Part shown: positions 39,543 to 52,035 of the stretch, piece by piece | How the letters are laid out: each line of letters begins with the position of its first letter | How positions within the stretch are numbered: the first letter of the stretch is position 1 | Assembly: GCA_903851045.1 (NCBI GenBank) | Contig: CAINNF010000018.1 | Span: 69,925 to 121,959, forward strand | DNA: 52,035 nt | Source: Candidatus Adlerbacteria bacterium | GTDB lineage: Bacteria > Patescibacteriota > Minisyncoccia > Phycocordibacterales > SBAW01 | Reading direction: 5' to 3' | Translations under genes and position numbers: made by a program | The notes under the pieces: generated by a model | Databases searched by the model: none | Told to the model about the DNA's origin: nothing | What the model saw: only the letters and a program-made list of their open reading frames with translations

Positions 39543-39614
39543 GGCCCTATCGTCTAACGGTTAGGACAGCGCCCTCTCACGGCGTAAATTGGGGTTCGAT
39601 TCCCCATAGGGTCA
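39543..39614 (+). tRNA. tRNA-Glu(CTC); integration target
   Basis: GGCCCTATCGTCTAACGGTTAGGACA-GCGCC-CTCTCAC-GGCGT-AAAT-TGGGGTTCGATTCCCCA-TAGGGTCA. Confidence 0.95.
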
Positions 39615-41290
39615 CAAGTTGGAGAAAATCTCTCCTCAAGTGCTTTGAAAGCGTTTTTACATTGGAAACTCAAGGTTTTTTGAGAGAGGGTGAGTTCTGA
39701 AAAGATTCCCCGAACGATAATCTCCTTTTCTGCTGATTCGGCTAAATCATAAACAACCGCAACGTCATTTAGAAGTTCTGAAAGTCTGATTGCTTCTTTA
39801 ACAATTTGTGACATTGAAGCGTCAGATGCAGCTTCTTGCGATTGAAGTTGGTTGAGTTCTGCCGTTAGCTTTGCTTCTTCTGCGAGCAGCGCTTCTGGCG
39901 TGTACGCGCCACTGCGCAGCAACATGAGCTTGTTTGTACCGATGTATGCCAAATCCTCACGCACCTTGCGTTTGCGACGATCGATCCGGTCCAATTCCAC
40001 CTGTCGCTTGTTGTCGAGGACTGCGATGTCAGTTGAGGTACGAGCATCAATCTCTGCTTTTTCATCCTCAGTGAACACGAGTTGTTTAATAACGTTACCT
40101 ATGGCTTTCTCAAGTTCGTCAGCCCTCACACTCTTTAACTTGTTTGGGCAGTCTTTTGTGCATCGAGAGTAAAGGTAGTGAATGCCTTTCTTGGTGTAAG
40201 GCGTGTAGATGCGACCGCATTCGCACCGCACGAGTCCCCGGTGAGCGAGCGGCACCTTATCAGGATAGTGAATGCTTACGTTGTGTTTGCTAAGTGCTAA
40301 TTGCACTTTCTCAAACAATACAGGGTCGACGAGCGCCTCGTGCGAGGTGCTGGGCACCCAGTCATGGTTATTGCCGTGAGTGAGTCCGATGTAAAATCTA
40401 TTCGTGAGAATTTTGTGTACGCCATTGAAAGTAACCGGCCGGGCGACCTTGGGCGTGTTTTTAAAATACTCGTCCTCATCATCCTCATCCATCAGCATTT
40501 CGTTTTGTGAGCGCTTGCGGCGCTGCGGTTGCATTGTGAAGCCCTGTTCATTGGCCCACCTTGCAAGATCAGACAAGCTCCAGTCGCCGGTAGCTGCAAG
40601 TTCAAACATTCGTTTGATGATAGGAGCTCTCTCAGGATCTAACGGCTTCCAATCCATGTTGCCTTCGTTGAGGTAGCCCACCGGAGCGCGGTTTGTCACT
40701 TTGCCTTGCTCTCGCACTTCATGGATGGTTTCCGTAACTTTTTCACTTGTGTTTTCGGCATGGTGCTGTGCAAACATCTGGTCTGCATTCATGTGCATAG
40801 AGCCAGATGCATTTTTCTCATACTTAGCCCAAACAAAGCGCACATCTATTCCTTGTCGAATGAGTTTTTTGACCAAGGCTCCGTCGGTGCTATTTCGACT
40901 GATGCGATCGTAGCAAAGGACGATGACTCCCTTAAATAGACCGCGTGAAAGGTATCCGATCAAGCGTCGAAATTTGGGGCGGCTAATACTTACCGTTACA
41001 AGACCATTGCTCCCAACCACAAACTCATCATCTTCCTCAAACCCCGAGTGCTTTTCAGAGATAATACCGTCAGTACAAAAACCCGCGATAGTGATCGCAG
41101 CAACCGATAAATGATGTTGGCGAGCGTATGAAATGTTCTGCTTTTTTTGAAAGCCGAGCGAGTTCTTTTGGTTGTTAGGATCTTTGTCCGAACGGCGGCC
41201 ATACGCAAGATAACTATCTCGATACTTACCCGACACGATGTCTTTCTCGAGCTTCGTAAAATCTGTTTTCTGTGTAGTTTTACTTTCCAT
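39554..41290 (-). CDS. large serine recombinase/integrase; 3' end reads through antisense tRNA-Glu
   Basis: YGRRS catalytic motif, DRISR, APVGYLN recombinase domain, IL.N.FY.G, HEALV, CECG..C..C zinc ribbon, coiled coil; last residues (CDPMGNRTP..) are encoded by the tRNA antisense. Confidence 0.92.
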   Translation of the reverse strand: MESKTTQKTDFTKLEKDIVSGKYRDSYLAYGRRSDKDPNNQKNSLGFQKKQNISYARQHHLSVAAITIAGFCTDGIISEKHSGFEEDDEFVVGSNGLVTVSISRPKFRRLIGYLSRGLFKGVIVLCYDRISRNSTDGALVKKLIRQGIDVRFVWAKYEKNASGSMHMNADQMFAQHHAENTSEKVTETIHEVREQGKVTNRAPVGYLNEGNMDWKPLDPERAPIIKRMFELAATGDWSLSDLARWANEQGFTMQPQRRKRSQNEMLMDEDDEDEYFKNTPKVARPVTFNGVHKILTNRFYIGLTHGNNHDWVPSTSHEALVDPVLFEKVQLALSKHNVSIHYPDKVPLAHRGLVRCECGRIYTPYTKKGIHYLYSRCTKDCPNKLKSVRADELEKAIGNVIKQLVFTEDEKAEIDARTSTDIAVLDNKRQVELDRIDRRKRKVREDLAYIGTNKLMLLRSGAYTPEALLAEEAKLTAELNQLQSQEAASDASMSQIVKEAIRLSELLNDVAVVYDLAESAEKEIIVRGIFSELTLSQKTLSFQCKNAFKALEERFSPTCDPMGNRTPIYAVRGRCPNR

Positions 41291-41483
41291 GTTTTTTGTC
41301 TTGCCATCTGCCTTGTGCAATGAGTCGGATGCGCATGCGGCGTAGCGCTTCACCTAATTCTACTATCTCCCGAATGTCTTCATCAGTAAAGTCGATTTTG
41401 CCCGTTTCCACGACCTTTTTAGGGTCATAGTTTTTGGGTATTGCAACGATAGCCCTTTCTCCATGGCGCGTTGCTTTAGCCAT
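41280..41483 (-). CDS. small hypothetical protein coupled to the recombinase
   Basis: 67 aa; overlaps the upstream gene by 8 nt and the recombinase start by 11 nt. Confidence 0.65.
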   Translation of the reverse strand: MAKATRHGERAIVAIPKNYDPKKVVETGKIDFTDEDIREIVELGEALRRMRIRLIAQGRWQDKKHGK

Positions 41484-42027
41484 GGTAGTTCTTCGGGATC
41501 GAGAATTTTTTAACTAGCTCATCTCGTCCGTCTCTAAGTTCTTTTGGTAACGCGCCAGTCTGAATGACTGAATTTTTGTTTGTATTCTTTGTAGTACTCT
41601 CTGTAGTAGTATGTTCAAACGCCCGAACTTGTTGGTCATTTTCAGCAAACTGGTTTGCTGAATTCTGCAAACTACTAGGTTGTTTTATTCGCTCGAGCAG
41701 CTTTACCAGCTGATCAGCATGTATGCGAAAGTACCGCTTGCACGGTATCCCTTTTCGTTTAACTTCAAGTACACCGAGCTTCTTCCAAATCTTGATTGCG
41801 CGATCCTGCTCGGAGCGATTTAGATGTATCTCTTTATGAAAATCTTTAATTGTTTTATAGACCCATCCTTCCCACGCCCCTTTGCCGTCCCAGTAAAGCA
41901 GTTGTGAGAGAAATAAACCTGCTCCTGCGCTGTTGGCTAATTGCGCGAGTGCTCGGTTGAATACGACCGGTTTTGCTCCAACAATTTCAAGGAGTTGAGA
42001 ATTAAGATTTTTGCGGGTGCCTTTCAC
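41476..42027 (-). CDS. phage-replication-initiator-like HTH protein
   Basis: AGLFLSQLLYW..G....WVYKT..., HTH-like helix, G.P.KRYFRI, Thr-rich TTESTTKNT linker. Confidence 0.7.
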   Translation of the reverse strand: MKGTRKNLNSQLLEIVGAKPVVFNRALAQLANSAGAGLFLSQLLYWDGKGAWEGWVYKTIKDFHKEIHLNRSEQDRAIKIWKKLGVLEVKRKGIPCKRYFRIHADQLVKLLERIKQPSSLQNSANQFAENDQQVRAFEHTTTESTTKNTNKNSVIQTGALPKELRDGRDELVKKFSIPKNYHG

Positions 42028-42152
42028 CCTTTATTTGTCCCTCGACACCCCCTCTCCCTTGCACTACCTTTTTGGGTTGGAGTGACAACATAAAAAAGCG
42101 ATAAAAATTGCAGTGGAGCTCTTCACTGTCAACAGGGCAATGATCCAATGAC

Positions 42153-42863
42153 CTACAAGGTATCCCTCGTAGGTTCTATTATCCGCACGTTATCGATGAA
42201 GTACCCGGTGCCACTCCGATCATTTTGAACAATCGACGAGCGTGGAATGTTAAATTTTTTCTCGACCTGAGTACGTATCTCCTCGACGGCTCCGCGCACA
42301 TCCTCAGTCGTGATATTTTCGTCTCTCGTGTTTAGAAAATCTACAAGATTCTGGGTACTTACCGGTTTTTTCTTTTCGGCGAGATATTGCAAGAGCTTAT
42401 AGCGGCGCGCATGCATTCGCATCACGTAGGGCTTCTTGGTACTACCCTCAAGTGTGAGTGCAGCCTCATGTTTCGCTGGATACGATAAAACAAATTGGTA
42501 GTGCTCGGTTGAGGCGCGCAGTTGTTGCTCCATGTCGAGTACGTAACGTGCTAACGCTGCTCTGTCTTCGAGCACTACTGTGTAGCCGGTTGGCACATGC
42601 GGCCAATGTCGCGGATCGGTATCCATCACGCTCTGTGGTTGTTGTACGGTCATCAAATTAAACTCAAAGTCCGGTCTCAGATCGTCTGCCATTTTTTGCA
42701 ATGCTCGTCGTAGTGCGTCCGAATCCCTAAGCAGCAAATCGGCCGCAAGTTCGTCGAATTTAATCGAGACACGAAGAATGTTCGGCTGTTTTTTGTACCG
42801 CTGCTGGATAAAGGTCGCCAGTCGCAATCGCCGTTCCAAAGATGGGTCTTTTACCGCCGTCAT
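42153..42863 (-). CDS. hypothetical protein with C-terminal winged-helix-like domain
   Basis: RYKLLQYLA..K.PVST..L...VRGAVEEIR...IVQN..GTGY. Confidence 0.65.
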   Translation of the reverse strand: MTAVKDPSLERRLRLATFIQQRYKKQPNILRVSIKFDELAADLLLRDSDALRRALQKMADDLRPDFEFNLMTVQQPQSVMDTDPRHWPHVPTGYTVVLEDRAALARYVLDMEQQLRASTEHYQFVLSYPAKHEAALTLEGSTKKPYVMRMHARRYKLLQYLAEKKKPVSTQNLVDFLNTRDENITTEDVRGAVEEIRTQVEKKFNIPRSSIVQNDRSGTGYFIDNVRIIEPTRDTL

Positions 42864-42938
42864 CGCTTCATTCTAGGCCCTACTGCCGCCAGTAGCAAAG
42901 CAGTGGTAATAGGTGTCTGCCGATGGTAAAGTTGGGGA

Positions 42939-43118
42939 ACAATTCAATAAAAAGTGCCTAACCTCTAGCTATTTGCTAGGGCAAGGCAGTCAAGCCTCAA
43001 CGAAGACACTGAACCTCACGTTCAGCCACTCTTCGTTGAGCCATATCTGGAAACGGGTATGGGGCCGCAAGGCCCGGCTGGCGTGGGGTTCTGTGTCTTT
43101 TACCCCACGCCGGTTTAT
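42939..43118 (+). ncRNA. candidate structured RNA or cis-regulatory leader
   Basis: Five consecutive hairpins including GAAA and GCAA tetraloops, preceded by TGgTAAAGT and ending in a terminator-like stem. Confidence 0.5.
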
Positions 43119-43137
43119 TAACCTAAGCGCGGAAATC

Positions 43138-43563
43138 ATGGACAATACACACATTTGGGACAAGGTGCTTGGTTCGGGTGAAGCGGCACAGTACGAGTTT
43201 TCAGTCGGCAATAGGTACCGTTCCGTTGCATGCATTTTATGGTGCGTTTTAACTTTTTTTATCGGTACTCCAATAGCGATTTTTTATTACCTCTTTTATC
43301 TTCCACGTGCGAGGGTGTACGCATTCACCGATCACCGTGTTCTGATTCATACCGGCTGGCTCTCCACCAAACTAGTTTCTACTGACTACCAGAAAATTAC
43401 CGACGTGACCGTAAAAGAACCGTTTTTCCAACGGCTCTTTTTCGGGACCGGTACGATCGAGATAGATACCGCAGGCACTAATCGGAAGGACGTGATCCTT
43501 TCGCATATAGAGCGTCCGTATGAGATCAAGAAGAAGCTCGATGAGCTGCGTAAACATCACTAA
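43138..43563 (+). CDS. bacterial PH (bPH_2) domain membrane protein
   Basis: TM hairpin then Y.FTD.RVLI.TG.LS...KI.DV.V......RLFFG.GTI.I.TAG. Confidence 0.85.
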   Translation: MDNTHIWDKVLGSGEAAQYEFSVGNRYRSVACILWCVLTFFIGTPIAIFYYLFYLPRARVYAFTDHRVLIHTGWLSTKLVSTDYQKITDVTVKEPFFQRLFFGTGTIEIDTAGTNRKDVILSHIERPYEIKKKLDELRKHH

Positions 43564-43566
43564 GCA

Positions 43567-43764
43567 ATGCTTCCCACAACGTTTAGCCCTGTGCCATTTC
43601 GAGCAAAGAAGCTTCGCCGGCTGTACAAGGAGTCGACCGGCATAGAGCTTTCCCCGAAGGACACCCATGTATTGTGGCTTTGCATCGTGCGGACTCAGCA
43701 CGCGCTGTGGCGCGCAGAGAATCGTGCCTATTTGCCTAGGCAAAAGAGACTTTTTCGACTATAG
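43567..43764 (+). CDS. small hypothetical protein
   Basis: 65 aa ORF starting 3 nt after the previous stop; 'LRRLYKESTGIELS' helical motif. Confidence 0.45.
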   Translation: MLPTTFSPVPFRAKKLRRLYKESTGIELSPKDTHVLWLCIVRTQHALWRAENRAYLPRQKRLFRL

Positions 43765-44024
43765 GAAAATCGGAGAGAATCGGAATCTCCTTTTGGAAAA
43801 AATCGTTATTACTCAAGGTTTTATTGAAATATCCGACTATCCGATTCCGATCGGTGCCGAACATTGGCCTTACCTTCGCGACACGGCGTCGAAGCCTCGC
43901 TAGTGGCAACACTTTCCTTACTGTGGTCGGACCTGCGCACACGTGGGCATTTAGGCCTAAATTACGCGGCCCAAGAAACTTACTCTGCCCATTTTTGGTG
44001 ATTTAGCAGTATAATGCCACAACT

Positions 44025-45713
44025 ATGGCAGCAAAGGACGATAAGCTAATTCTCGATAAACGTCTAGAGGAGCAACGCGCTGCGGTGGCCAATACCATGT
44101 CGGAGTCGGAGTATTTTGAGGTTTTCACTGCCGAACAGATACTCAAAGATTTCGACCTATCATACGAAGAAATACAATCCGGTATTGTTGACGGGAGCCG
44201 CGATGGTGGTATCGACAGCGCCTACGTCTTCGTTAATGGTGACCTTGTGCAAGAAGATAGCGACCACTCAACCGTATTGAAAGATGTGGTTATAGATCTT
44301 GTCATCATTCAGTCAAAGTCAGCCGAAGGATTTGAAGAAACGGCAATCCAAAAAATTACCTCCGCGACAACCGATCTTTTTGACACATCCCACACTCTTT
44401 CAAGCTATAAAGGCACCTACAACGAAGGGCTGCTACGCATCGCTCAACTATTTCAAGCCACTTATCAAAATCTTGCCGGGCGCCTACCGCGCCTTCGCGT
44501 CACATATCACTACGCTACTAAAGGCGATAGCGTACACCCTAATGTCTCAGATAAAGCCAAGGTGCTCGAGCAAACAATCAAAGACTTGTTTTCCTCCGTC
44601 GAGGTCAGCGTGAATTTCCATACCGCACGAGCTTTGATAGATCTCGCTAGACGCACACCAAAGTCTACACGTCAGATAGTTGTTACAGAGTCCATTTCCG
44701 CCGCCAAAGGCACAGCTTTTATTGCTCTCGCAAAACTCAAAGACTTTTATACTTTTATTCTCGATGATGGTGGGAAGCTTGCGTCACACATCTTTGAGGC
44801 GAACGTGCGCGATTACTTGGGAGATGCTGCGGTCAACGAAGGGATACGTCAGACATTGAGTGCCCCGCAGACCGAAGACTTTTGGTGGTTAAACAATGGA
44901 GTGACCATCTTGTCCTCACAAGTTACGCTTAGCGGCAAGACACTTACCATAGAGAACCCTGAGATAGTGAATGGTCTTCAAACTTCTCGTGAGATATTCG
45001 ATTTCTTTAACAGTGGTGGTGGGCCGGCCGACGAGCGAGATGTCCTCATTCGGGTAGTTGTTCCAACAGCTGCTGAAAGTCGCTACAACATCATTCGTGC
45101 GACGAATAGTCAGACCGCCATCTCGCCTGCGTCGTTGCGCGCCACCGATCCGATTCAGCGCGATATAGATGAATACCTGCGCGCTTTCAACATTTTCTAC
45201 GATAGGCGTAAGAACTACTACAAGAACCAAGGTAAGCCTATAAAGAGCATTGTGGGTATTCCTCAACTCGCTCAAGCGGTCGAGGCAATAGTTTTGCAAC
45301 AACCCAATACTGCCCGTGCTCGCCCGTCGTCTTTAATAAAACAGCAGGAAGATTACGAAAAGCTCTTTACCTCGAACTACCCGATTGAGGTCTACCGCGC
45401 CTGCGTTGATATTATAAAGGCCACCGAAGCTTTTCTGGCCAATCACCCTGATGAAATGGACTCTGTTGAGAAAAACGATCTCAAATACTACGTGGCAATG
45501 ATCACAACAACGATCCTGCTCAAGACGGTTAATCCTACCCCTGTGCAAGTTGCTACTCTAGCCGGGACTAGCATCAGTGAAATAGCACTTGAACAGGCCT
45601 ACAAAACAGCAAAGGAAAAATATAAGAATCTTGGCGGCGACGATACTGTAGCAAAAGGCCCACAAATGCTGGCTGAGGTAGTCTCTGTATTAACTCAGGG
45701 TTCTCTTTTTTAG
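44025..45713 (+). CDS. AIPR family protein (abortive infection phage resistance)
   Basis: DGGIDS..IIQSK N-domain; FEANVRDYLG, WLNNGVTI, IVNGLQTS, ATNSQ. Confidence 0.9.
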   Translation: MAAKDDKLILDKRLEEQRAAVANTMSESEYFEVFTAEQILKDFDLSYEEIQSGIVDGSRDGGIDSAYVFVNGDLVQEDSDHSTVLKDVVIDLVIIQSKSAEGFEETAIQKITSATTDLFDTSHTLSSYKGTYNEGLLRIAQLFQATYQNLAGRLPRLRVTYHYATKGDSVHPNVSDKAKVLEQTIKDLFSSVEVSVNFHTARALIDLARRTPKSTRQIVVTESISAAKGTAFIALAKLKDFYTFILDDGGKLASHIFEANVRDYLGDAAVNEGIRQTLSAPQTEDFWWLNNGVTILSSQVTLSGKTLTIENPEIVNGLQTSREIFDFFNSGGGPADERDVLIRVVVPTAAESRYNIIRATNSQTAISPASLRATDPIQRDIDEYLRAFNIFYDRRKNYYKNQGKPIKSIVGIPQLAQAVEAIVLQQPNTARARPSSLIKQQEDYEKLFTSNYPIEVYRACVDIIKATEAFLANHPDEMDSVEKNDLKYYVAMITTTILLKTVNPTPVQVATLAGTSISEIALEQAYKTAKEKYKNLGGDDTVAKGPQMLAEVVSVLTQGSLF

Positions 45714-45763
45714 AAACCGGACTGTATGGACCTGATGCGTTCCTATTGATATGCTTCGGGTTA

Positions 45764-46279
45764 ATGAAATACCACGTCCAGCCAGCATACGATTTCTACC
45801 GGAAATTCATCTACAACGAGGAGCTTCAAGCTTTGCTGCGCAAGCACCACAAGCATGTTGCCGGTAGTGTCCCATCAATTTATTGGGAGCTTTTCGGTGC
45901 TATTCTGACGGGAGACAAAGGTAAGGAGGGGTATGGTTCTGATCTTGAGCACCATGAGGTTAAGTCGTCAGTGCAAGGTGCAAGCTTTGAATACCAATAT
46001 CACTTGAATGCTGGCAAGCAGAAGCTCCTTGAAGACATTAACGTAGACCATGTTTTCGTATCCTACAGCCCCGACTACAAAGATATTGACGTGCGACTGG
46101 TTAAAGGATCGGCGCTTAAAGAGCGCTTCGACAGTTGGATGCCCGGTTTGATTGCAAACTACGAAGGAGAGACTCGTCGCCAGCGTTATCGCAAAAACAT
46201 ACCTTACGGAGTGGTCGCCCGGAGCGGCGAGCTCATGATGCAAGTGCGGCAGGGCGAATTAGTTGCTGTCGGCCGATAG
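45764..46279 (+). CDS. putative PD-(D/E)xK restriction endonuclease
   Basis: WELFG...GSDL..HEVKS spacing; convergent with and overlapping a C5 methyltransferase. Confidence 0.55.
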   Translation: MKYHVQPAYDFYRKFIYNEELQALLRKHHKHVAGSVPSIYWELFGAILTGDKGKEGYGSDLEHHEVKSSVQGASFEYQYHLNAGKQKLLEDINVDHVFVSYSPDYKDIDVRLVKGSALKERFDSWMPGLIANYEGETRRQRYRKNIPYGVVARSGELMMQVRQGELVAVGR

Positions 46280-47423
46280 GCTGCAATGGTAGCGAATTCA
46301 AATAGTGCAGCCCGATCCACTCCACTGCAGGCACGCAAACTGCGTCTCCGAAACCGAAAAGAACTTGGTTAAGAGAAAGGCTCGGATCAATTGCGAAGTC
46401 ATCTGCGCCCATTAACCTCGCCGCCTCGTTTCCATTGAATAACCGAGCGTTAAAAGTTCCTTTGCCTGCACGAAGTATGATTTGCCGTGCACTTCCTCCT
46501 TTCGGCGTTCTTAGGCAACCTGCAATTCCATCCGAACGAAGTTCGACTGTTGAGCGTTTTTCGCCGTCACGCATGCGCATTCGACGAAAAGCCGGGAAAT
46601 ACAGATAATCATCCTCTTTCATTGTTTTTCGCACGAGCTGACGATGCCGTTCATGCATCTGATTAAACAGGTAGTCGGTTCGCTCTTTGTCCCACCATTC
46701 TTCGCTTTGATCGATAATGTCTTCAAGGAGAATAGTTCTTTTAGGCAAATTTGGTAGCTGGTGAAAATACCAGCGCAGATCCGCATTCGTTTCGATGTAT
46801 TTGATGATTTTTTCCGAGCGTGCATCTGATGTCCGAAGCGCATACTCCTGTTCCATGCTACCCGTCGGAAGTGCCTGTACAATCGTGTCGTGCACTCCAA
46901 GTATAAAAAGGCGTACTCGACTCTGAGGTACGAAGTTAGCAGCGTCGAGTCGGAGCAAATCGATACTGTAACCTAAATCGTTTAGCGTACTCAAAACAGA
47001 CCTTAAATCTTTTCCATCATTTGATGTAAGTAGTCCTTCAACATTTTCAAGCAAGATAAGGGGCGGGTTTGCTTCACCATGCTCTTGCTTCATTTCTTTC
47101 ACTACCCGTACAAACTCCCAAAACGCTGAGGACTCTCCTTTGTTTATGCCGCCGCGCGCACCGGCTACAGAAAGATCAGTGCAAGGAAAGGATGCGTGCG
47201 CGAGGGTGACCTTTGGAACGTCAGAACCACGCGTCTTCGCTATATCTTGCGTAACGTAGTGGTCACTTTTAAAGTGATTTTCGTATGCACGTGCTTTTTC
47301 GGGAGCATAGTCGTACGCACGCACAGTACTCCAGCCGGCCCGCTCAAGCCCAAGAGTTACGAGTCCGATTCCAGCAAAAAAGTCAGCCACTGTTTTATGC
47401 TTGGAAGGATTGGTCTTTCGCAT
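46233..47423 (-). CDS. DNA (cytosine-5)-methyltransferase
   Basis: FFAGIG (I), FPC (IV), ENV (VI), QSRVR (VIII), RLMG and FGDAV (IX/X). Confidence 0.95.
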   Translation of the reverse strand: MRKTNPSKHKTVADFFAGIGLVTLGLERAGWSTVRAYDYAPEKARAYENHFKSDHYVTQDIAKTRGSDVPKVTLAHASFPCTDLSVAGARGGINKGESSAFWEFVRVVKEMKQEHGEANPPLILLENVEGLLTSNDGKDLRSVLSTLNDLGYSIDLLRLDAANFVPQSRVRLFILGVHDTIVQALPTGSMEQEYALRTSDARSEKIIKYIETNADLRWYFHQLPNLPKRTILLEDIIDQSEEWWDKERTDYLFNQMHERHRQLVRKTMKEDDYLYFPAFRRMRMRDGEKRSTVELRSDGIAGCLRTPKGGSARQIILRAGKGTFNARLFNGNEAARLMGADDFAIDPSLSLNQVLFGFGDAVCVPAVEWIGLHYLNSLPLQPIGRQQLIRPAALAS

Positions 47424-47525
47424 GTATCCATTGTACCAAGAACTGCCTGAAGCAAGAAAGAAGTGTATTTTCTACCTTTAGCTTCCCCTTGAAACCGGAT
47501 TGCGTTACAATCAGGGCACTTTTTT

Positions 47526-48602
47526 ATGCCCCCTCAAACTACCAACTACGAAATCGATTTTATGACAGTAGGCGCTGGCGAAAGAAGCGGCGACGCTATT
47601 GCACTGCGAGTCTGGGATAACACCGGGCAGCAGCAGGTTTTTGTAATTGATGGCGGTACCAAAGAGACGGGTAAACTACTCGTTCAACACATCCTCACTG
47701 TTTACGGTACAAATGTAGTGAACGCAGTCATTTCAACTCATCCTGACGGAGATCACGCTTCCGGACTCACTGAAGTACTCGAGAACTTGGACGTGAAGTT
47801 GCTCATGATGCATCAGCCATGGGATCATGCAGCCGACATAAAAGCTTCTTTTGAGAGCGACGGCCTTACTCATTTGGGCTTGCAACGAAAGATTAAAGCG
47901 GAATTGGGTTATGCCCACGAACTTAAAAAAATCGCTGACCGCAAGAAAATACCCATCGTTGAGCCGTTCGAAGGTGGCCAATGGAACGGCGGTCTTTTTC
48001 GAGTGCTCGGCCCCTCGCAAACGTATTACGAGTCACTTCTCCCACAATTCCGCGACATGCCGGAGACAAAGGAGCCGCTTGGTTTAATTCCCGGCTTGAT
48101 CAAGACGGCCACAGAGAAACTGGAAATGGTTGCCGAAGCCTTCAATATCGAAACACTTACGGACGGTAACGAGCACTTTAGTGCCGAGAACAACACGAGC
48201 ACCATCCTTCTCTTCAATCTCGGTCAAGACAAGGTACTTTTTACGGGCGATGCGGATGCCGATGCGCTTACGCTTGCAGCAGACTATGCGGCAGGCAATG
48301 GTATTTCGCTTACAGATCTCAAAATCCTGCAAGTGCCGCACCACGGTAGTAAGCAAAATGTTGGCCCGACCATACTCGATCGCATCAAAGCCCCGCACGC
48401 ACACATTTCCGTTTCCCCGGGCGCAGCGCCGAAACACCCGTCTAAGAAGGTAATAAATGCGCTCATACGCCGTGGCGCACGTGTTTTTACAAACAATGCT
48501 GGATTATCATCACCCGCATGCTACCGGAGCGCAGGTGTGCCTGCGCGGCCGGGATACACCGATATCTCAGCGCATCCTTTTTATAACGAGGTGGAAGTAT
48601 GA
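47526..48602 (+). CDS. MBL-fold (ComEC-like) metallo-hydrolase, soluble
   Basis: GDAI, VIDGG, THPDGDHASG, N.TS, FTGDA, VPHHGS, KHP; no TM or competence domain. Confidence 0.9.
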   Translation: MPPQTTNYEIDFMTVGAGERSGDAIALRVWDNTGQQQVFVIDGGTKETGKLLVQHILTVYGTNVVNAVISTHPDGDHASGLTEVLENLDVKLLMMHQPWDHAADIKASFESDGLTHLGLQRKIKAELGYAHELKKIADRKKIPIVEPFEGGQWNGGLFRVLGPSQTYYESLLPQFRDMPETKEPLGLIPGLIKTATEKLEMVAEAFNIETLTDGNEHFSAENNTSTILLFNLGQDKVLFTGDADADALTLAADYAAGNGISLTDLKILQVPHHGSKQNVGPTILDRIKAPHAHISVSPGAAPKHPSKKVINALIRRGARVFTNNAGLSSPACYRSAGVPARPGYTDISAHPFYNEVEV

Positions 48603-49315
48603 GCACTATACCTTCATTCGATAGGTACACGATGCAGGCACGGCTGTTGCCGATGTTTGTTTTACTTTTACCACTCGGTCTTTTACTGCTTGCTTGGTAT
48701 CCGACAACTTCCGTCTGGCTCGACGCAATCGAGACACTTGGCCTGCCGGTCGTCTTGACCGCACTACTTTCCCAACTCGGCCGCGATCTCGGAAAGAAAA
48801 AAGAACCTGCACTCTTCGCGGAATGGGGTGGTATGCCAACAGATCGCATTCTCTCGTTCAGCAAGACCTTCTTGGATGGTGCAACCTTCGCACGTTACCG
48901 CGCAAAGCTCTCAGCGCTTCTCCCGTCGATGCAATTTCTCGACGAGGCTCAGGAAACAGCATCGCCTGAAGGCGCGCTGCAAGTTTTCCGGACTTGCACC
49001 AACTTTCTGCGCGAAAAGACACGCGATCATGGCAATTTTGCTCTGATTTTTGCCGAGAATATAAACTACGGCTTCCGGCGCAACCTCTGGGCTATGCGAC
49101 CAGCAGGTATCACCATTTCCGCTCTAGCTACCATCGGTGCTGCATCATCAATTTTGCTTACACCAAACAATCCGATCTCGCCGCTCATCATCGTTGCAAT
49201 TTGCATCAATGCGTGTCTTTTCGTGTTTTGGGTACTACGCATCAACCGTAACTGGGTGCGTGTTCCGGCGGAAGAGTATGCAAAGCAGCTCTTTGCTGCT
49301 TGCGAGGTTTTGTAA
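48599..49315 (+). CDS. hypothetical 4-TM protein coupled to the MBL hydrolase
   Basis: ATGA overlap; 2 TM, soluble loop (WGGMPT...ENINYGFRRNL), 2 TM. Confidence 0.8.
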   Translation: MSTIPSFDRYTMQARLLPMFVLLLPLGLLLLAWYPTTSVWLDAIETLGLPVVLTALLSQLGRDLGKKKEPALFAEWGGMPTDRILSFSKTFLDGATFARYRAKLSALLPSMQFLDEAQETASPEGALQVFRTCTNFLREKTRDHGNFALIFAENINYGFRRNLWAMRPAGITISALATIGAASSILLTPNNPISPLIIVAICINACLFVFWVLRINRNWVRVPAEEYAKQLFAACEVL

Positions 49316-49316
49316 A

Positions 49317-49409
49317 TCACTTTGCTAAAATAGCCTCAAGCGTTTGGATGTCCGAAGGAAGCAAACTGCTGTATTTACTGAGTTCTGAAAGCCAAGTAAA
49401 CTGGTCACA
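49317..49409 (-). other. displaced recombinase C-terminal tail at attR (CDQFTWLSELSKYSSLLPSDIQTLEAILAK*)
   Basis: Begins TGT GAC in the same frame as the recombinase at the left core; stop codon lies 1 nt from the stop of the convergent gene. Confidence 0.7.
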
Positions 49410-49543
49410 AATTTTTGGAGCTTATTTTGCAACGCCGTTTGGAGACCCCAAACGGGAAATTTTGAGCAGTTGGAACCAGAAACAGAAAACCCACCGAAGC
49501 GGGTTTTTCCGCTGGTGGGCTTGAGACCGACCAAACATATGGA

Positions 49544-49924
49544 CTATATTAGAAGCTCGAAAGTTCCTTCAATGAAGTTGGGAACTTCACTTGAACCCGG
49601 ACCAATCGGAACATCACTGAAGTATATGGTCCACTGAGGGGGAAGGATTTTGCCCAGATGGTTGGGCTCGCTCTCGAAATGGAGCCAGGACGGACCGCGC
49701 GATCTACTTAGATCGCGCAATGGCAAGGCGGCACTCGTGAGCCAAAAGCTCGTTGCCGCCTCACCCTCAAAGGCGTGCACTTTTAGGCCGTCGATTCGGC
49801 CGACCACTCGATAAGCCGTCCCTTCTGCGCTCCAGTTAAAGGCGAAGATTCTTCCGATGCACTCTGCCTCGGAAGGTAAGCCAGCTTTTGGCAGTAGATT
49901 TGCCAATTGTTGTGAGAGAAACAC
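49544..49924 (-). CDS. hypothetical protein (cassette cargo)
   Basis: GTG start with SD AAGGAG; TTGACA-N17-TAAAAT at 49990-49962. Confidence 0.7.
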   Translation of the reverse strand: MFLSQQLANLLPKAGLPSEAECIGRIFAFNWSAEGTAYRVVGRIDGLKVHAFEGEAATSFWLTSAALPLRDLSRSRGPSWLHFESEPNHLGKILPPQWTIYFSDVPIGPGSSEVPNFIEGTFELLI

Positions 49925-50004
49925 GGAAATGCTCCTTTCTTTGTTGAAGAACCTAAAATCTATTTTATAATAATATTATATAATTGTCAATATTAAAATA
50001 CATT

Positions 50005-50104
50005 CTAAACTAAGGCTTTTTCGGCATCAAAAAGCTTTCCAAACTCCTGCCACTGATATAACTCCCGCACCAACTGGTTCCAATTAGCACTAACTTGGGT
50101 CACA
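50005..50104 (-). other. orphan C-terminal tail 2 starting at GGGTCACA core (VTQVSANWNQLVRELYQWQEFGK...)
   Basis: 21/31 aa identical to the tail at 51759-51854; similarity stops exactly at the tRNA-derived core. Confidence 0.7.
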
Positions 50105-50156
50105 CCGACTTTCGAAAACGAGCTCCGCTTTTCAAGCGGGGCCATTTTCGTTCGGT

Positions 50157-50305
50157 GTGACCTAAGCAGGCAATCTGCATTGCCTGCGTTGGGGAATCGA
50201 AAGACGGAGCGTTGCCAAGTCAGCAGACTTGGCCGCGAGTCGGGGTCGCGAAAATTCCGAAGCGACGGCGAGGAATTATTTGTGACCGATCCCCATAGGG
50301 TCACA
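50157..50305. repeat. palindromic element bounded by inverted copies of the tRNA-Glu 3' end
   Basis: TCCCCATAGGGTCACA (50290-50305) equals 39601-39616; inverted copy GTGACCTA..TGGGGAATCGAA (50157-50201) is interrupted by a 9-bp hairpin. Confidence 0.75.
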
Positions 50306-50379
50306 GAGTTTGACTTTTAATATCTTAGTGTTATATTTTATTCGGTTGAAATAGCTCACAGCTTCATAGAGAGGCTTCG

Positions 50380-50916
50380 ATGGAACGCAGTAAAATCGTT
50401 GCGGTTGCACAAAAGGTAGACGGACAGCCGGTCATCTTCTCGCCACCAACTGAGCGTGTGCTCGGTCGGCAGGTGCTGGAGTGGTCGGGTTACTGTGGCA
50501 CCTACGGGCAAGGGGGGCCGGGATTCTTTGGCCTGCGCCTCGCTGCAACTGGTGTGTACCCGGAAGAGTGGCTCATACTTCGCCTCTGGAGTGCGAACGA
50601 CTGGTTGAACGTGAATGGGCATTGGCTCGGTGCGAATCCTGGCCAGTACACCGACGCTACCCAGCCACTCTACTCTAACTTCCACGGGGCAAAGTGGGAC
50701 AGGTTCACCCCGCTGGTCACCAACCAGAGGATTACGAAATTCGACGTCCAAAAACGGACGCTCGACATCGAGATCGGCGACGCCAAGATCGTGCTGACCG
50801 AGGACCCGACCACACGCCCGATCTACGCTGGCACGCAAGAGCCACGCACACTCTCGCCAGGCGACGACCTACGTGAGGCGTGGATCATCGCCGCCGCACC
50901 CTGGGTCCGCGTCTAA
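50380..50916 (+). CDS. hypothetical protein (cassette cargo)
   Basis: 178 aa, SD GAGAGG, TTGACT-N16-TATATT upstream; GTYG.GGPGFFG motif. Confidence 0.75.
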   Translation: MERSKIVAVAQKVDGQPVIFSPPTERVLGRQVLEWSGYCGTYGQGGPGFFGLRLAATGVYPEEWLILRLWSANDWLNVNGHWLGANPGQYTDATQPLYSNFHGAKWDRFTPLVTNQRITKFDVQKRTLDIEIGDAKIVLTEDPTTRPIYAGTQEPRTLSPGDDLREAWIIAAAPWVRV

Positions 50917-51155
50917 AACCAAAAAGTCCCGCATTTTTCGCAGGACCGCTTTCTTTTGTTCACGCGGCAGTATCCAACCACCCAGCACGACCCCTCCCCG
51001 GGTCGTGCTCTTTTCTTACATATTATTCTTCCCGTGTCCCTCCATCCACCAGCTAAATATGACAACACAAAAAAGCTAAATTAATCGGACTCCCCAATTC
51101 CCCTCAATTTCCAAAAGAAAAAGCCGCCGCGTGAGCGGTCGGCTTTGCGAGGCAA

Positions 51156-51716
51156 TTACGCCCCTTTTTCTTTTGGAAGGCTTTTGACAAGCGCATCTTT
51201 TACGGCGCGTTGGGCCTCTTCGGGAGATTTCACGCAAGTGGTCGTCTCTTTGCCCGATTGCATATCGATGTGGGTGAAGGTGACACCGCACCAACTGCTC
51301 ACAAGCCAGTACTCGATAGCGTTGAGTATGGCACTCGGCAGGTCCATGAACCAGCCTTTGAGGAAGCGGTCGAGACAGAACCAGCTCCATGGCCAGATAA
51401 TGGCGCCGAGTAGGTTTCCGCCGACGTCCTTCCATCCTTTGTGTCTGAGATGAGAACTGAGGCTCTGCATCCCCACGCAGCAGTGCTGGAAGGAGAAGGT
51501 GGTGAGGAAAGCGAAGGTGAAAATACCCAACCCCGCGTAGACCTTCCAAGCAACTGCGAGATAGGCGAATGCCGCTGAGACTTCAAACCCCCAGCCAGCG
51601 ACCGCCGCTGCGACAATACTTGCAGCGAACAGCAGACCGAGGTAGTGCAGGAACACCAGCGCGAGAACGAAGGGGAGGGCGACCAGCCCCAGCACCCTCA
51701 AAAGGACTTTCTTCAT
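51156..51716 (-). CDS. hypothetical membrane protein (cassette cargo)
   Basis: ATG 51716 with SD GGAGGA; several TM segments; TTGACA-N17-TATTGT overlapping tail 3. Confidence 0.7.
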   Translation of the reverse strand: MKKVLLRVLGLVALPFVLALVFLHYLGLLFAASIVAAAVAGWGFEVSAAFAYLAVAWKVYAGLGIFTFAFLTTFSFQHCCVGMQSLSSHLRHKGWKDVGGNLLGAIIWPWSWFCLDRFLKGWFMDLPSAILNAIEYWLVSSWCGVTFTHIDMQSGKETTTCVKSPEEAQRAVKDALVKSLPKEKGA

Positions 51717-51758
51717 CAGTCGTCTCCTCCAATGAATGCTGGTAGTACAATAAAGCAC

Positions 51759-51855
51759 CTAAAGCACTTTGTCAACTTCTAACATCTTCCCAAAACGTTG
51801 CCATTGGTACAGCTCTGTCACTAACTGGTTCCAGTTCTGTCCCACTTGGGTCACA
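51759..51855 (-). other. orphan C-terminal tail 3 starting at GGGTCACA core (VTQVGQNWNQLVTELYQWQRFGK...)
   Basis: Homologous to 50005-50103 with many synonymous substitutions. Confidence 0.7.
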
Positions 51856-52035
51856 AAAAGACACACAACCTGCACTGCCGCAGGACCACAAAAAGAATGA
51901 CCTCCTCCCCGGGCGTTGCCCGGGGTTTCCTTTTGCGGCATGAGGACCTAGAACAAGCGGGCACTTTGTGGTTGCTCTTTGCGACCCTGCCACGCTATGT
52001 ATCGTTTGACCTGTGTCTCGTTGAGTCCCACGGTA

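Follow-up and report, generated by a model that had tools for sequence, protein, structure and literature searches.

A probable tRNA-Glu integration hotspot in a Candidatus Adlerbacteria genome, with a serine recombinase gene predicted to be split by integration and orphan recombinase-like tails

Gene capture by recombinases at fixed chromosomal sites is known in several forms, and an array of inserts behind a tRNA-Glu gene of Candidatus Adlerbacteria bacterium shares features with a number of them. The array lies in the last part of a 52,035-nt stretch (GenBank assembly GCA_903851045.1, contig CAINNF010000018.1, positions 69,925 to 121,959 of the forward strand), referred to throughout as the window. 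It comprises an island with a resident large serine recombinase (LSR) gene (E1), two short segments that end in orphan tails (E2 and E4) and a tRNA-trailer module (E3). Among the known forms, integrons combine a resident IntI tyrosine recombinase and an attI/Pc platform with promoter-less cassettes that end in a folded attC site. Cis-mobilizable elements and the accretion of integrative and conjugative or mobilizable elements (ICE and IME; the Streptococcus ICESt concept) involve tyrosine recombinases, and an origin by deletion has been proposed. In intP of myxophage Mx8, in SSV-type integrases and in the integration-dependent immunity of mycobacteriophages, the attachment site attP lies inside a gene, and the C-terminus of the product changes.

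A system of the present kind has been described in Dehalococcoides. According to the portion of that paper used here (PMC3146451), tandem islands lie downstream of ssrA, a t(m)RNA gene whose 3' end is repeated at their borders. Next to attL, a gene for a 540-aa serine recombinase is encoded in reverse orientation and overlaps the last ~70 bp of ssrA. A six-gene integration module includes a second small serine recombinase, DsiA; some islands are without the integration module and were discussed as possibly cis-mobilizable (PMC3146451). The authors suggested that a complete enzyme may exist solely in the circular form, or where a neighbour supplies the 3' fragment; in their view the overlap was unlikely to be functional, and they did not settle the stop codon (PMC3146451). 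Tycheposons of Prochlorococcus are a further relative: in the part of the preprint used here, 910 of the 937 carry tyrosine recombinases, and many carry replication genes (bioRxiv 10.1101/2020.12.28.424599). A search of the open-access literature returned no paper that analyses a detached C-terminal exon of a serine recombinase, and no description of such an arrangement in Patescibacteria.

The array is read here as the outer portion of a hotspot for integration into the tRNA-Glu(CUC) 3' end, where serial insertion was followed by decay, and we consider this account probable. The window is the terminal part of contig C18 of a 1.25-Mb genome in 25 contigs; congener genomes measure 0.5-1.1 Mb. 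Comparisons were made across a genus set of 80 genomes, namely this genome (G000) and 79 congeners (other G labels), and tail-bearing loci carry L labels. The tRNA tallies around LSR loci and around copies of module M3 (described below), and those of the genus survey, are minima, since ARAGORN may undercount on multi-sequence files; tail-to-tRNA-Glu distances, and the positions of repeat M2 in G018, come from single-sequence tRNA scans.

The resident recombinase gene and its target

The target and the island beside it have the following features:

39543-39615, plus strand: tRNA-Glu(CUC), the integration target (ARAGORN; Rfam tRNA, 60.7 bits)
39610-39616, plus strand: predicted attL core GGTCACA, formed by the last tRNA-Glu bases plus position 39616
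39554-41353, minus strand: resident LSR, 599-aa open frame (open reading frame (ORF) and Pfam)
39616-49409: island E1, 9.8 kb, with cores at 39610 and 49403
49317-49409, minus strand: natural C-terminal exon predicted for the resident LSR, CDQFTWLSELSKYSSLLPSDIQTLEAILAK; stop codon at 49317-49319 (same-frame translation, open for 30 codons)
49403-49409, plus strand: predicted attR core of E1 (core search)

The resident enzyme carries a Resolvase domain (PF00239; E 1.3e-10, 42 bits, cut-off 23.3) and a Recombinase domain (PF07508; E 2.3e-12, 47.5 bits, cut-off 21.1), and a Zn_ribbon_recom match (PF13408; E 5.7e-5) that at 23.8 bits falls slightly below the cut-off of 25.3. E1 yielded no identifiable directionality factor. 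The final ~21 codons of the LSR (..CDPMGNRTPIYAVRGRCPNR) are antisense tRNA-Glu. Both junctions of E1 have the identical short core GGTCACA, and the LSR's own tail abuts the one at 49403. Because the LSR frame enters the antisense tRNA and a same-frame tail abuts the far core, the resident gene is predicted to be split by integration, with its body at attL and its natural tail at attR. The 3' end of the gene would span the element's own attP, so that integration would cut the gene and rewrite the C-terminus of the enzyme; the body at attL would then end in ~20 antisense-tRNA codons, and the last ~30 codons would lie at attR.

The same layout recurs among relatives. Homologues of the resident LSR were found in 9 of the 79 congeners (39-71% identity). 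Of 10 resident-type loci, the window included, at least six read into tRNA-Glu and one into tRNA-Ser; one is cut by a contig end within tRNA-Glu-coded residues, one has no visible tRNA and one is broken. Resident-type tails, recognizable by a WLSEL motif, occur in 8 of the 80 genomes as 10 copies (E <= 0.1). In five genomes (G095, G084, G055, G017 and G013) the tail lies on the contig and strand of the LSR at a distance of ~6-20 kb, the position expected for the island's opposite end. All nine tails examined are open for 30-33 codons, and similarity is lost exactly at the core. The ratio of nonsynonymous to synonymous differences (pN/pS) is 0.50 in the reading frame of these tails vs 1.07 and 1.73 in the other two, and a stretch ~15 nt from the core, TGGCTTTCCGAAC, is near-invariant with third codon positions included. 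Two segments with resident-type tails and no LSR lie 3.4 kb from tRNA-Glu (G069 and G053).

The arrangement extends beyond the resident family. LSR genes are present in 45 of the 80 genus genomes (E <= 1e-30), with up to 11 matches per genome and six in this one. Twenty further LSR loci were surveyed, and in at least 13 the gene either terminates within an antisense tRNA or continues through it, the tRNAs being those for Ile, Ser, Thr, Arg, Gly, Gln, Asp and Glu. Of the rest, one ends 12 nt short, three are cut by contig ends and three are without a tRNA.

GGTCACA occurs on the plus strand at 39610, 49403, 50098, 50299 and 51849 and on the minus strand at 50156 and 50281; the positions 50097, 50298 and 51848 of the initial annotation count one extra G in front. 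The bare 7-mer tally is not significant (10 in the window vs 5.97 +/- 2.52 expected; 8 of 100 shuffles reach 10), and the significance of the array thus comes from the longer sequence context. Of the four cores that the initial annotation had taken as boundaries, those at 49403, 50098 and 51849 abut tails, and the one at 50299 belongs to a repeat that trails tRNA genes.

Besides the LSR, E1 contains a LOOT RNA, an AIPR protein, a C-5 DNA methylase and a metallo-beta-lactamase (MBL)-fold protein. The LOOT RNA motif (RF03000; 42955-43075, plus strand) is full-length, at 80.7 bits vs a gathering score of 46.4, and overlaps the 5' part of an ORF at 42913-43563. The cargo at 44025-48602 looks defence-related, with the AIPR protein (E 2.7e-41), the C-5 cytosine DNA methylase (E 1.9e-46) and the MBL-fold protein; the methylase adjoins a 177-aa ORF without an assigned family. 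A second, variant tRNA-Glu(CUC) copy is located on contig C16 (C16:34942-35013, minus strand), together with ~50 nt of upstream flank.

Orphan tails of a second recombinase lineage

Two further tails read in a frame other than that of the resident enzyme:

50005-50104, minus strand: orphan tail 2, VTQVSANWNQLVRELYQWQEFGKLFDAEKALV, with its stop at 50005-50007 and its core at 50098-50104 (ORF, tblastn)
51759-51855, minus strand: orphan tail 4, VTQVGQNWNQLVTELYQWQRFGKMLEVDKVL, with its stop at 51759-51761 and its core at 51849-51855 (ORF, tblastn)

The initial annotation had reported ~30-codon tails before three cores, two of them homologous up to the core, and alignment agrees on each point. 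Without gaps, tails 2 and 4 have the same residue at 21 of 33 codon positions, 9 of the 21 by differing codons, and both terminate in CTTGGGTCACA. In a whole-genome search they match only each other (E 1.6e-11; next best E >= 0.4). Their frame, GTG ACC CAA, is one base out of register with the resident TGT GAC C.., as had also been noted. Beyond the core, upstream, the two copies are unrelated, and this flank differs in every copy of the type, designated VT. The third tail, at the 49403 core, is real and belongs to a separate family that reads in the resident LSR frame. No tail was found at the core at 50299.

The coding signal of the VT-type tails is frame-specific. Between tails 2 and 4, pN/pS is 0.17 in the reading frame, and 1.48 and 1.45 in the other two; over 16 VT-type copies it is 0.35, with off-frame values of 0.94-1.48. 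The protein-level selection claimed earlier is upheld to the extent of these low, frame-specific values; selection in place is not implied by pN/pS < 1. In most copies an in-frame ATG, GTG or TTG lies exactly at the core, and stops were found in two distinct copies (L015 and L017) among the first 16-17 and in a weak second copy in L002.

VT-type tails also carry a near-invariant motif, TTGGAACCA, ~20 nt from the core, in which the third codon positions are included. In both tail families the invariant stretch (~10-12 nt, 10-20 bp from the core) is placed as a half-site would be in a serine integrase att site, and it is probably such a recombinase-binding half-site inside coding sequence.

The tails are widespread. 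In the genus, 17 copies occur in 14 of the 80 genomes, in open frames that never exceed 169 codons. A profile built from 14 VT tails and run against 1.84 billion representative proteins gave 94 matches (E <= 0.001) of 29-210 aa. The motif lies at their C-terminal end, the exception being a 1460-aa protein that matches profile positions 6-18 only and was taken as spurious. In species genomes the tails were located at 51 loci, 46 in records titled Patescibacteria or candidate phyla radiation (CPR) and 5 in records titled only 'bacterium', which bears out the initial annotation's placement of the organism in the CPR. The first opposite-strand tRNA beyond the tail is tRNA-Glu at 23 of the 51 loci and another tRNA at none; at the remaining 28 there is no tRNA within the available flank, which was below 1.5 kb in 11 of them. 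In 22 of the 23 loci the distance from tail to tRNA-Glu is 304-1249 nt.

Several links tie these tails to recombinases. Among 24 of the 94 profile matches inspected, six have recombinase-C-terminus-like sequence upstream of VTQ, and two of these links were aligned: residues 26-79 of P0018 match the terminus of a G050 LSR (530 aa, reading into tRNA-His) at 54% identity, and proteins of the P0021/P0094 type are similar to a G049 LSR (518 aa, reading into tRNA-Lys). In G006, a 532-aa LSR reads into tRNA-Glu(CUC) in the VT frame and ends in ..VPMMVTLRGFEPRFVP. Locus L139 has a 122-codon open frame in which the last ~75 recombinase codons are joined in frame to the tail. Similarly, L129 has a 76-aa remnant fused to the tail, and a 42-aa remnant that reads into tRNA-Glu(UUC); the remnants at both loci are internal to the assembled loci and uncut by contig ends. 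At the tandem junction of L160, a complete 536-aa recombinase of the other frame crosses the core into a VT-type tail, out of frame. Searches with other methods were negative within their scope: BLASTP of P0071 against the resident LSR gave no significant match, Pfam scans of six tail-bearing fragments gave nothing significant, and word-based searches of longer proteins (with the 60-aa frame around tail 4 and the 210-aa P0071) returned nothing, which is weak evidence.

From sequence comparison, VT tails are thus taken as the C-terminal exons that a second lineage of serine recombinases, likewise split at att, is predicted to have. The earlier idea that the tails are C-terminal pieces of att-split LSRs appears right, on the evidence of two lineages: the resident exon and the in-frame remnant fusions. 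The proposal that the orphan tails supply the missing end of the resident enzyme did not survive, because they belong to another frame and family and the resident has its own tail at 49317-49409.

In L045, L046, L047 and L007 the tail homology seemed to continue past the core on its upstream side; the alignments responsible are short and due to chance. At L014 (G011:C22, 2263-2361) an inverted VT-type tail lies 470 nt upstream of tRNA-Glu(CUC), joined to the start region of a small gene, with trailer-type modules beyond the core of the tail. This locus may be a rearrangement between both tRNA-Glu loci.

Short segments and the trailing repeat beyond the island

The rest of the array consists of the following features:

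49410-50104: segment E2, 695 bp, composed of M3, a 126-aa ORF and tail 2 (cores 49403/50098)
49410-49480: M3, a non-coding left-end module of ~70 nt with the hairpin CGTTTGG..CCAAACG (6-copy alignment)
49507-49486, minus strand: terminator-like hairpin of the E2 cargo
49544-49924, minus strand: E2 cargo ORF, 126 aa, no family (ORF list)
49990-49962, minus strand: promoter-like site of the E2 cargo, just after tail 2 (11 of 12 consensus positions)
50098-50305, plus strand: E3, predicted tRNA-trailer module (same layout 3' of tRNA-Glu in congeners)
50098-50162, plus strand: M1 hairpin, built on the core and the last bases of the tRNA
~50165-50188, plus strand: stem-loop of E3
50206-50287, plus strand: M2, structured repeat unit of ~80 nt (covariance model; second copy at C21:1390-1478)
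50290-50305, plus strand: exact 16-nt copy of the tRNA 3' end
50306-51855: segment E4, 1.55 kb, composed of 178- and 200-aa ORFs and tail 4 (cores 50299/51849)
50380-50916, plus strand: E4 cargo ORF, 178 aa, hypothetical (ORF list)
51156-51758, minus strand: E4 cargo ORF, up to 200 aa, hydrophobic (ORF list)
51775-51747, minus strand: promoter-like site overlapping the end of tail 4 (10 of 12 consensus positions; -35 box in the last tail codons)
51856-51894, plus strand: start of a second, M1-like trailer hairpin, resembling the trailer 3' of tRNA-Glu(CUC) in G011

The initial annotation had described segments without a recombinase body, whose cargo has promoters at or inside the tails. Both descriptions hold: the ORF list and tblastn with LSR queries gave no recombinase body within 49410-52035, and the two promoter-like sites lie where expected. 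According to the ORF list and a tblastn aimed at LSRs, E2 and E4 are also without recombinase or transfer genes. The cargo proteins of 126, 178 and 200 aa matched no Pfam or NCBIfam family. For the 126-aa protein there is one weak partial match among the 79 congeners, and for the 178-aa protein Atlas returned only 'hypothetical' clusters. The intergenic stretch at ~50974-51103 recurs, over 134 nt and at 90% identity, at C16:38994-39127, ~4 kb from the variant tRNA-Glu.

The left end of E2 is a module in its own right. M3 is non-coding, with 1-nt indels and stops in all frames among six aligned copies, and its right boundary is sharp, at TTGGAACCA. It lies directly 3' of tRNA-Glu(UUC) in at least four congeners and is absent from E4 and from several cassettes of relatives. 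M3 was also considered as a decayed recombinase 3' end and rejected, as its protein-level matches were only non-coding copies beside tRNA-Glu or chance hits to housekeeping genes. In this genome the tRNA-Glu(UUC) gene (C18:64446-64518) is followed by ~400 bp and then trxB, without M3, cargo or tail; at the equivalent site in G023, M3, a cargo ORF and a tail precede trxB. The empty site here and the filled one in G023 mark the M3-cargo-tail unit as an insertion. Cassettes are present at both tRNA-Glu genes, CUC and UUC. The cargo between M3 and tail differs: in G000 it is a minus-strand ORF of 126 aa, in G023 a plus-strand ORF unrelated to it. A homologous M3-cargo-tail unit is outermost in both G023 and L139, with a stop inside the tail in each.

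E3 is of a different nature. Its layout directly follows tRNA-Glu in several congeners, and a copy of the last 16-20 nt of the tRNA is present in 7 of 13 trailers inspected; in the window, 39601-39616 is identical to 50290-50305. The inverted cores at 50156 and 50281 fall within it. E3 is identified from this layout as a displaced copy of the genus's tRNA-trailing module rather than a cassette; the core at 50299 and the inverted cores thus belong to that module and mark no cassette boundary. ARAGORN and Rfam were empty at E3, where a tmRNA, a split tRNA or a ribozyme had been considered, and its acceptor-like and T-like long-range pairings arise from the inverted and direct copies of the tRNA 3' end.

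Within E3, M2 is a previously unlisted structured repeat behind tRNA and transfer-messenger RNA (tmRNA) genes across the genus, found as a by-product of the analysis. Of its 22 predicted pairs, 20 have compensatory changes; 90.9% of cells are paired vs 34-45% with slid partners, and none of 500 shuffles reaches the observed values. The covariance model detects M2 in 68 of the 80 genus genomes, with up to 35 copies (G018) and two in this genome; in the congeners together the sites number in the hundreds. Of the 33 G018 copies fetched (of 35), 30 lie at most 450 nt downstream of a same-strand tRNA or tmRNA. One to three units are present, the first ~50 nt after the tRNA or tmRNA gene and the others in tandem. 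The copy in the window has no Rfam match at E <= 1. M2 could be a processing or terminator module, or a miniature element that targets tRNAs.

In 51856-51894 the chromosomal sequence that originally followed tRNA-Glu is probably preserved; a repeat present in two copies interrupts it at 51895. The 141 nt at the contig end (51895-52035) recur without change at the end of contig C4 (3.7 kb), on which a pilin-like gene begins. A 384-nt unitig at ~2x chromosomal depth carries this stretch in the public runs. A minus-strand ORF has its 3' end (..VKRYIAWQGRKEQPQSARLF) in the stretch, which also contains a terminator-like hairpin.

Origin of the array and comparison with described systems

Under the hotspot account, each newcomer would insert at the tRNA and displace older inserts outward, and the older inserts would lose their recombinase side by deletion. 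What is left would be an attR-proximal relic made of one or two cargo genes, an orphan tail and a core. The segments 49410-50104 and 50306-51855 would be such relics, derived from the second recombinase lineage with its other core frame. The tails would have been kept both as protein, being part of active recombinases, and as DNA, carrying the putative binding half-site. Evidence for relics comes from the recombinase 3' remnants of 42 and ~75 codons at the left end of comparable segments (L129 and L139); E2 and E4 contain no such remnant. The LSR-less segments with resident-type tails in G069 and G053, and the lack of M3 in E4 and in several cassettes of relatives, count on the same side. Together with the shared outermost position of a unit with a decayed tail, these remnants point to the decay of larger elements. 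As the P arm and core are retained, the relics might still be movable by a related enzyme, with a neighbour or in trans. The serial integration at the tRNA-Glu 3' end that was originally proposed is what the locus appears to record.

Several observations weigh against this account. M3 has no detectable recombinase coding remnant and recurs with different cargo (G000 and G023), which purpose-built mini-elements explain as well as decay does. At 22 of the 23 loci with a tRNA-Glu, tail and tRNA are 0.3-1.25 kb apart, whereas islands of ~10 kb that decayed at random should give a wider spread. The core provides an in-frame ATG or GTG in most copies, making a free-standing 30-residue peptide possible. 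CPR genomes were expected to show the tails as ends of full-length recombinases beside tRNA genes; the position beside tRNA-Glu was borne out at 23 of 51 loci, and no full-length recombinase with a VT-type tail was found among the 94 profile matches, so that the pairing of VT-frame enzyme and VT tail is drawn from remnants. In this genome, tblastn with LSR queries found no VT-frame recombinase at tRNA-Glu; the recombinase that placed both relics is thus absent. To our knowledge, canonical serine integrases do not recombine attP with attL, a difficulty for the tandem build-up.

One rival, in which the repeats arose by chance or through assembly and no real array exists, has virtually no probability left. 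The 7-mer count is within chance and the contig terminates in a repeat, but the artefact reading is refuted by the tail homology within the genome (E 1.6e-11), the recurrence of the tails at 51 loci of other species, beside tRNA-Glu, and contigs from public runs that span the array. Public sequencing data comprised four runs, stored as contigs. In one run, a 12,337-nt contig covers 39588-51924 with 0 differences at depth 50, the chromosomal flank being at depth 51; in a second run, from another study, a 10,562-nt contig covers 41363-51924. These two runs may themselves be the source of this assembly. A more serious alternative holds that E2 and E4 are purpose-built, recombinase-less mini-elements, with M3 as P' arm and the tail as P arm, whose integration and excision would depend on a related serine recombinase acting in trans, in a working gene-capture array. 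It would explain the conserved ends M3 and tail around unrelated cargo (G000 and G023), the sharp boundary of M3, whose first ~20 nt roughly mirror the inner half-site of the tail (by eye, unscored), the clustering of tail-tRNA distances, the promoter-like sites of the cargo genes and the cassettes at both tRNA-Glu genes. We nevertheless regard it as unlikely. No excision, circle or empty-site joint was present in the contigs of the four public runs, a format from which rare forms are dropped. Moreover, neither E4 nor several of the relatives' cassettes contain M3, left ends elsewhere hold recombinase remnants of 42 and ~75 codons, as decay predicts, the homologous unit that is outermost in two species has a stop in its tail, and the cognate VT-frame enzyme is absent from this genome. 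The related claim of an integron-like array of small non-autonomous cassettes went unconfirmed, as no cassette movement was seen and one contig spans the array; the integron analogy is not supported.

A third alternative regards the tail as a free-standing micro-gene of ~30 residues with a host or anti-element role, such as site blocking or interference with incoming recombinases. The start codon exactly at the core, the open frames of most orphan tails, the 29-60-aa proteins that gene callers predict from the core codon and the fact that orphan tails by tRNA-Glu far outnumber intact VT-frame elements are in its favour. However, the tRNA sequence by itself brings about the start codon, and the flank upstream of the core differs in every copy, so that there is no conserved ribosome-binding site or promoter. 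In-frame fusions to recombinase C-terminal remnants at several independent loci also speak against a micro-gene, and pN/pS < 1 is expected from divergence within active elements. The idea is accordingly very unlikely. A further proposal concerns function: the split LSR may act as an integration-state switch, with the selected C-terminal helix present only on the circle or outside a neighbour's tail, and with the orphan tail-core units functional. This is doubtful, if worth pursuing. If true, orphan units would be landing pads that complete a neighbour's enzyme, or trans-mobilizable mini-cassettes, and streamlined CPR genomes would gain a gene-capture platform based on serine recombinases.

LSRs are sought-after enzymes for genome engineering, and those of this clade target the 3' ends of many tRNAs. 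The predicted integration-state-dependent C-terminus and the tRNA-trailing structured repeat are the two noteworthy points; the locus also suggests a route by which small, host-dependent CPR genomes gain and retain single accessory genes beside tRNAs. The predicted detached exon in two lineages makes the 2011 Dehalococcoides hypothesis directly testable.

The comparison with described systems places the locus between several of them. Resemblance to integrons lies in the ordered short gene-bearing units with a recurring recombination core beside a fixed site. It differs from them in that the serine recombinases are borne by the incoming elements, the units have their own promoter-like sites, and the unit ends are coding remnants with frame-specific constraint instead of attC; no IntI/attI/Pc platform was found at the locus, where the 10 largest ORFs of 39-52 kb were scanned and the rest of the genome was not searched for IntI. 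As in cis-mobilizable elements, E2 and E4 are flanked by att-type sites, have no recombination genes and share their target with an autonomous element, beside which they lie in tandem; unlike the ICESt type, the recombinases are serine recombinases, and no conjugation or mobilization genes were seen. With the attP-in-gene systems the locus shares protein ends that would differ between the integrated state and the free one, and that might serve to sense integration; in those systems the gene is a tyrosine integrase or a repressor gene, and here the split gene is an LSR.

As in the tycheposons, to the extent that the preprint text used here describes them, tRNA-targeted cargo elements occur in a streamlined genome, older inserts are pushed outward, and remnants and partial tRNAs are present; a split recombinase gene is not reported in that text (bioRxiv 10.1101/2020.12.28.424599). 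The closest match is Dehalococcoides, whose islands had already been described as a system of this kind, contrary to the earlier suggestion of an undescribed one. Measured against the portion of that paper used here, the LSR again lies by attL, on the strand opposite to the RNA gene, and overlaps its 3' end; the present array differs in its target, a patescibacterial tRNA-Glu, in its shorter core, 7-8 nt against 20, and in the much smaller size of its relics, which measure 0.7 and 1.55 kb (PMC3146451). Neither a second small recombinase of the DsiA kind nor a six-gene integration module was seen here, though no search was aimed at them. Beyond that description, the detached 3' fragment is identified here in two families, and in both its frame-specific pN/pS shows evolution under protein-level constraint.

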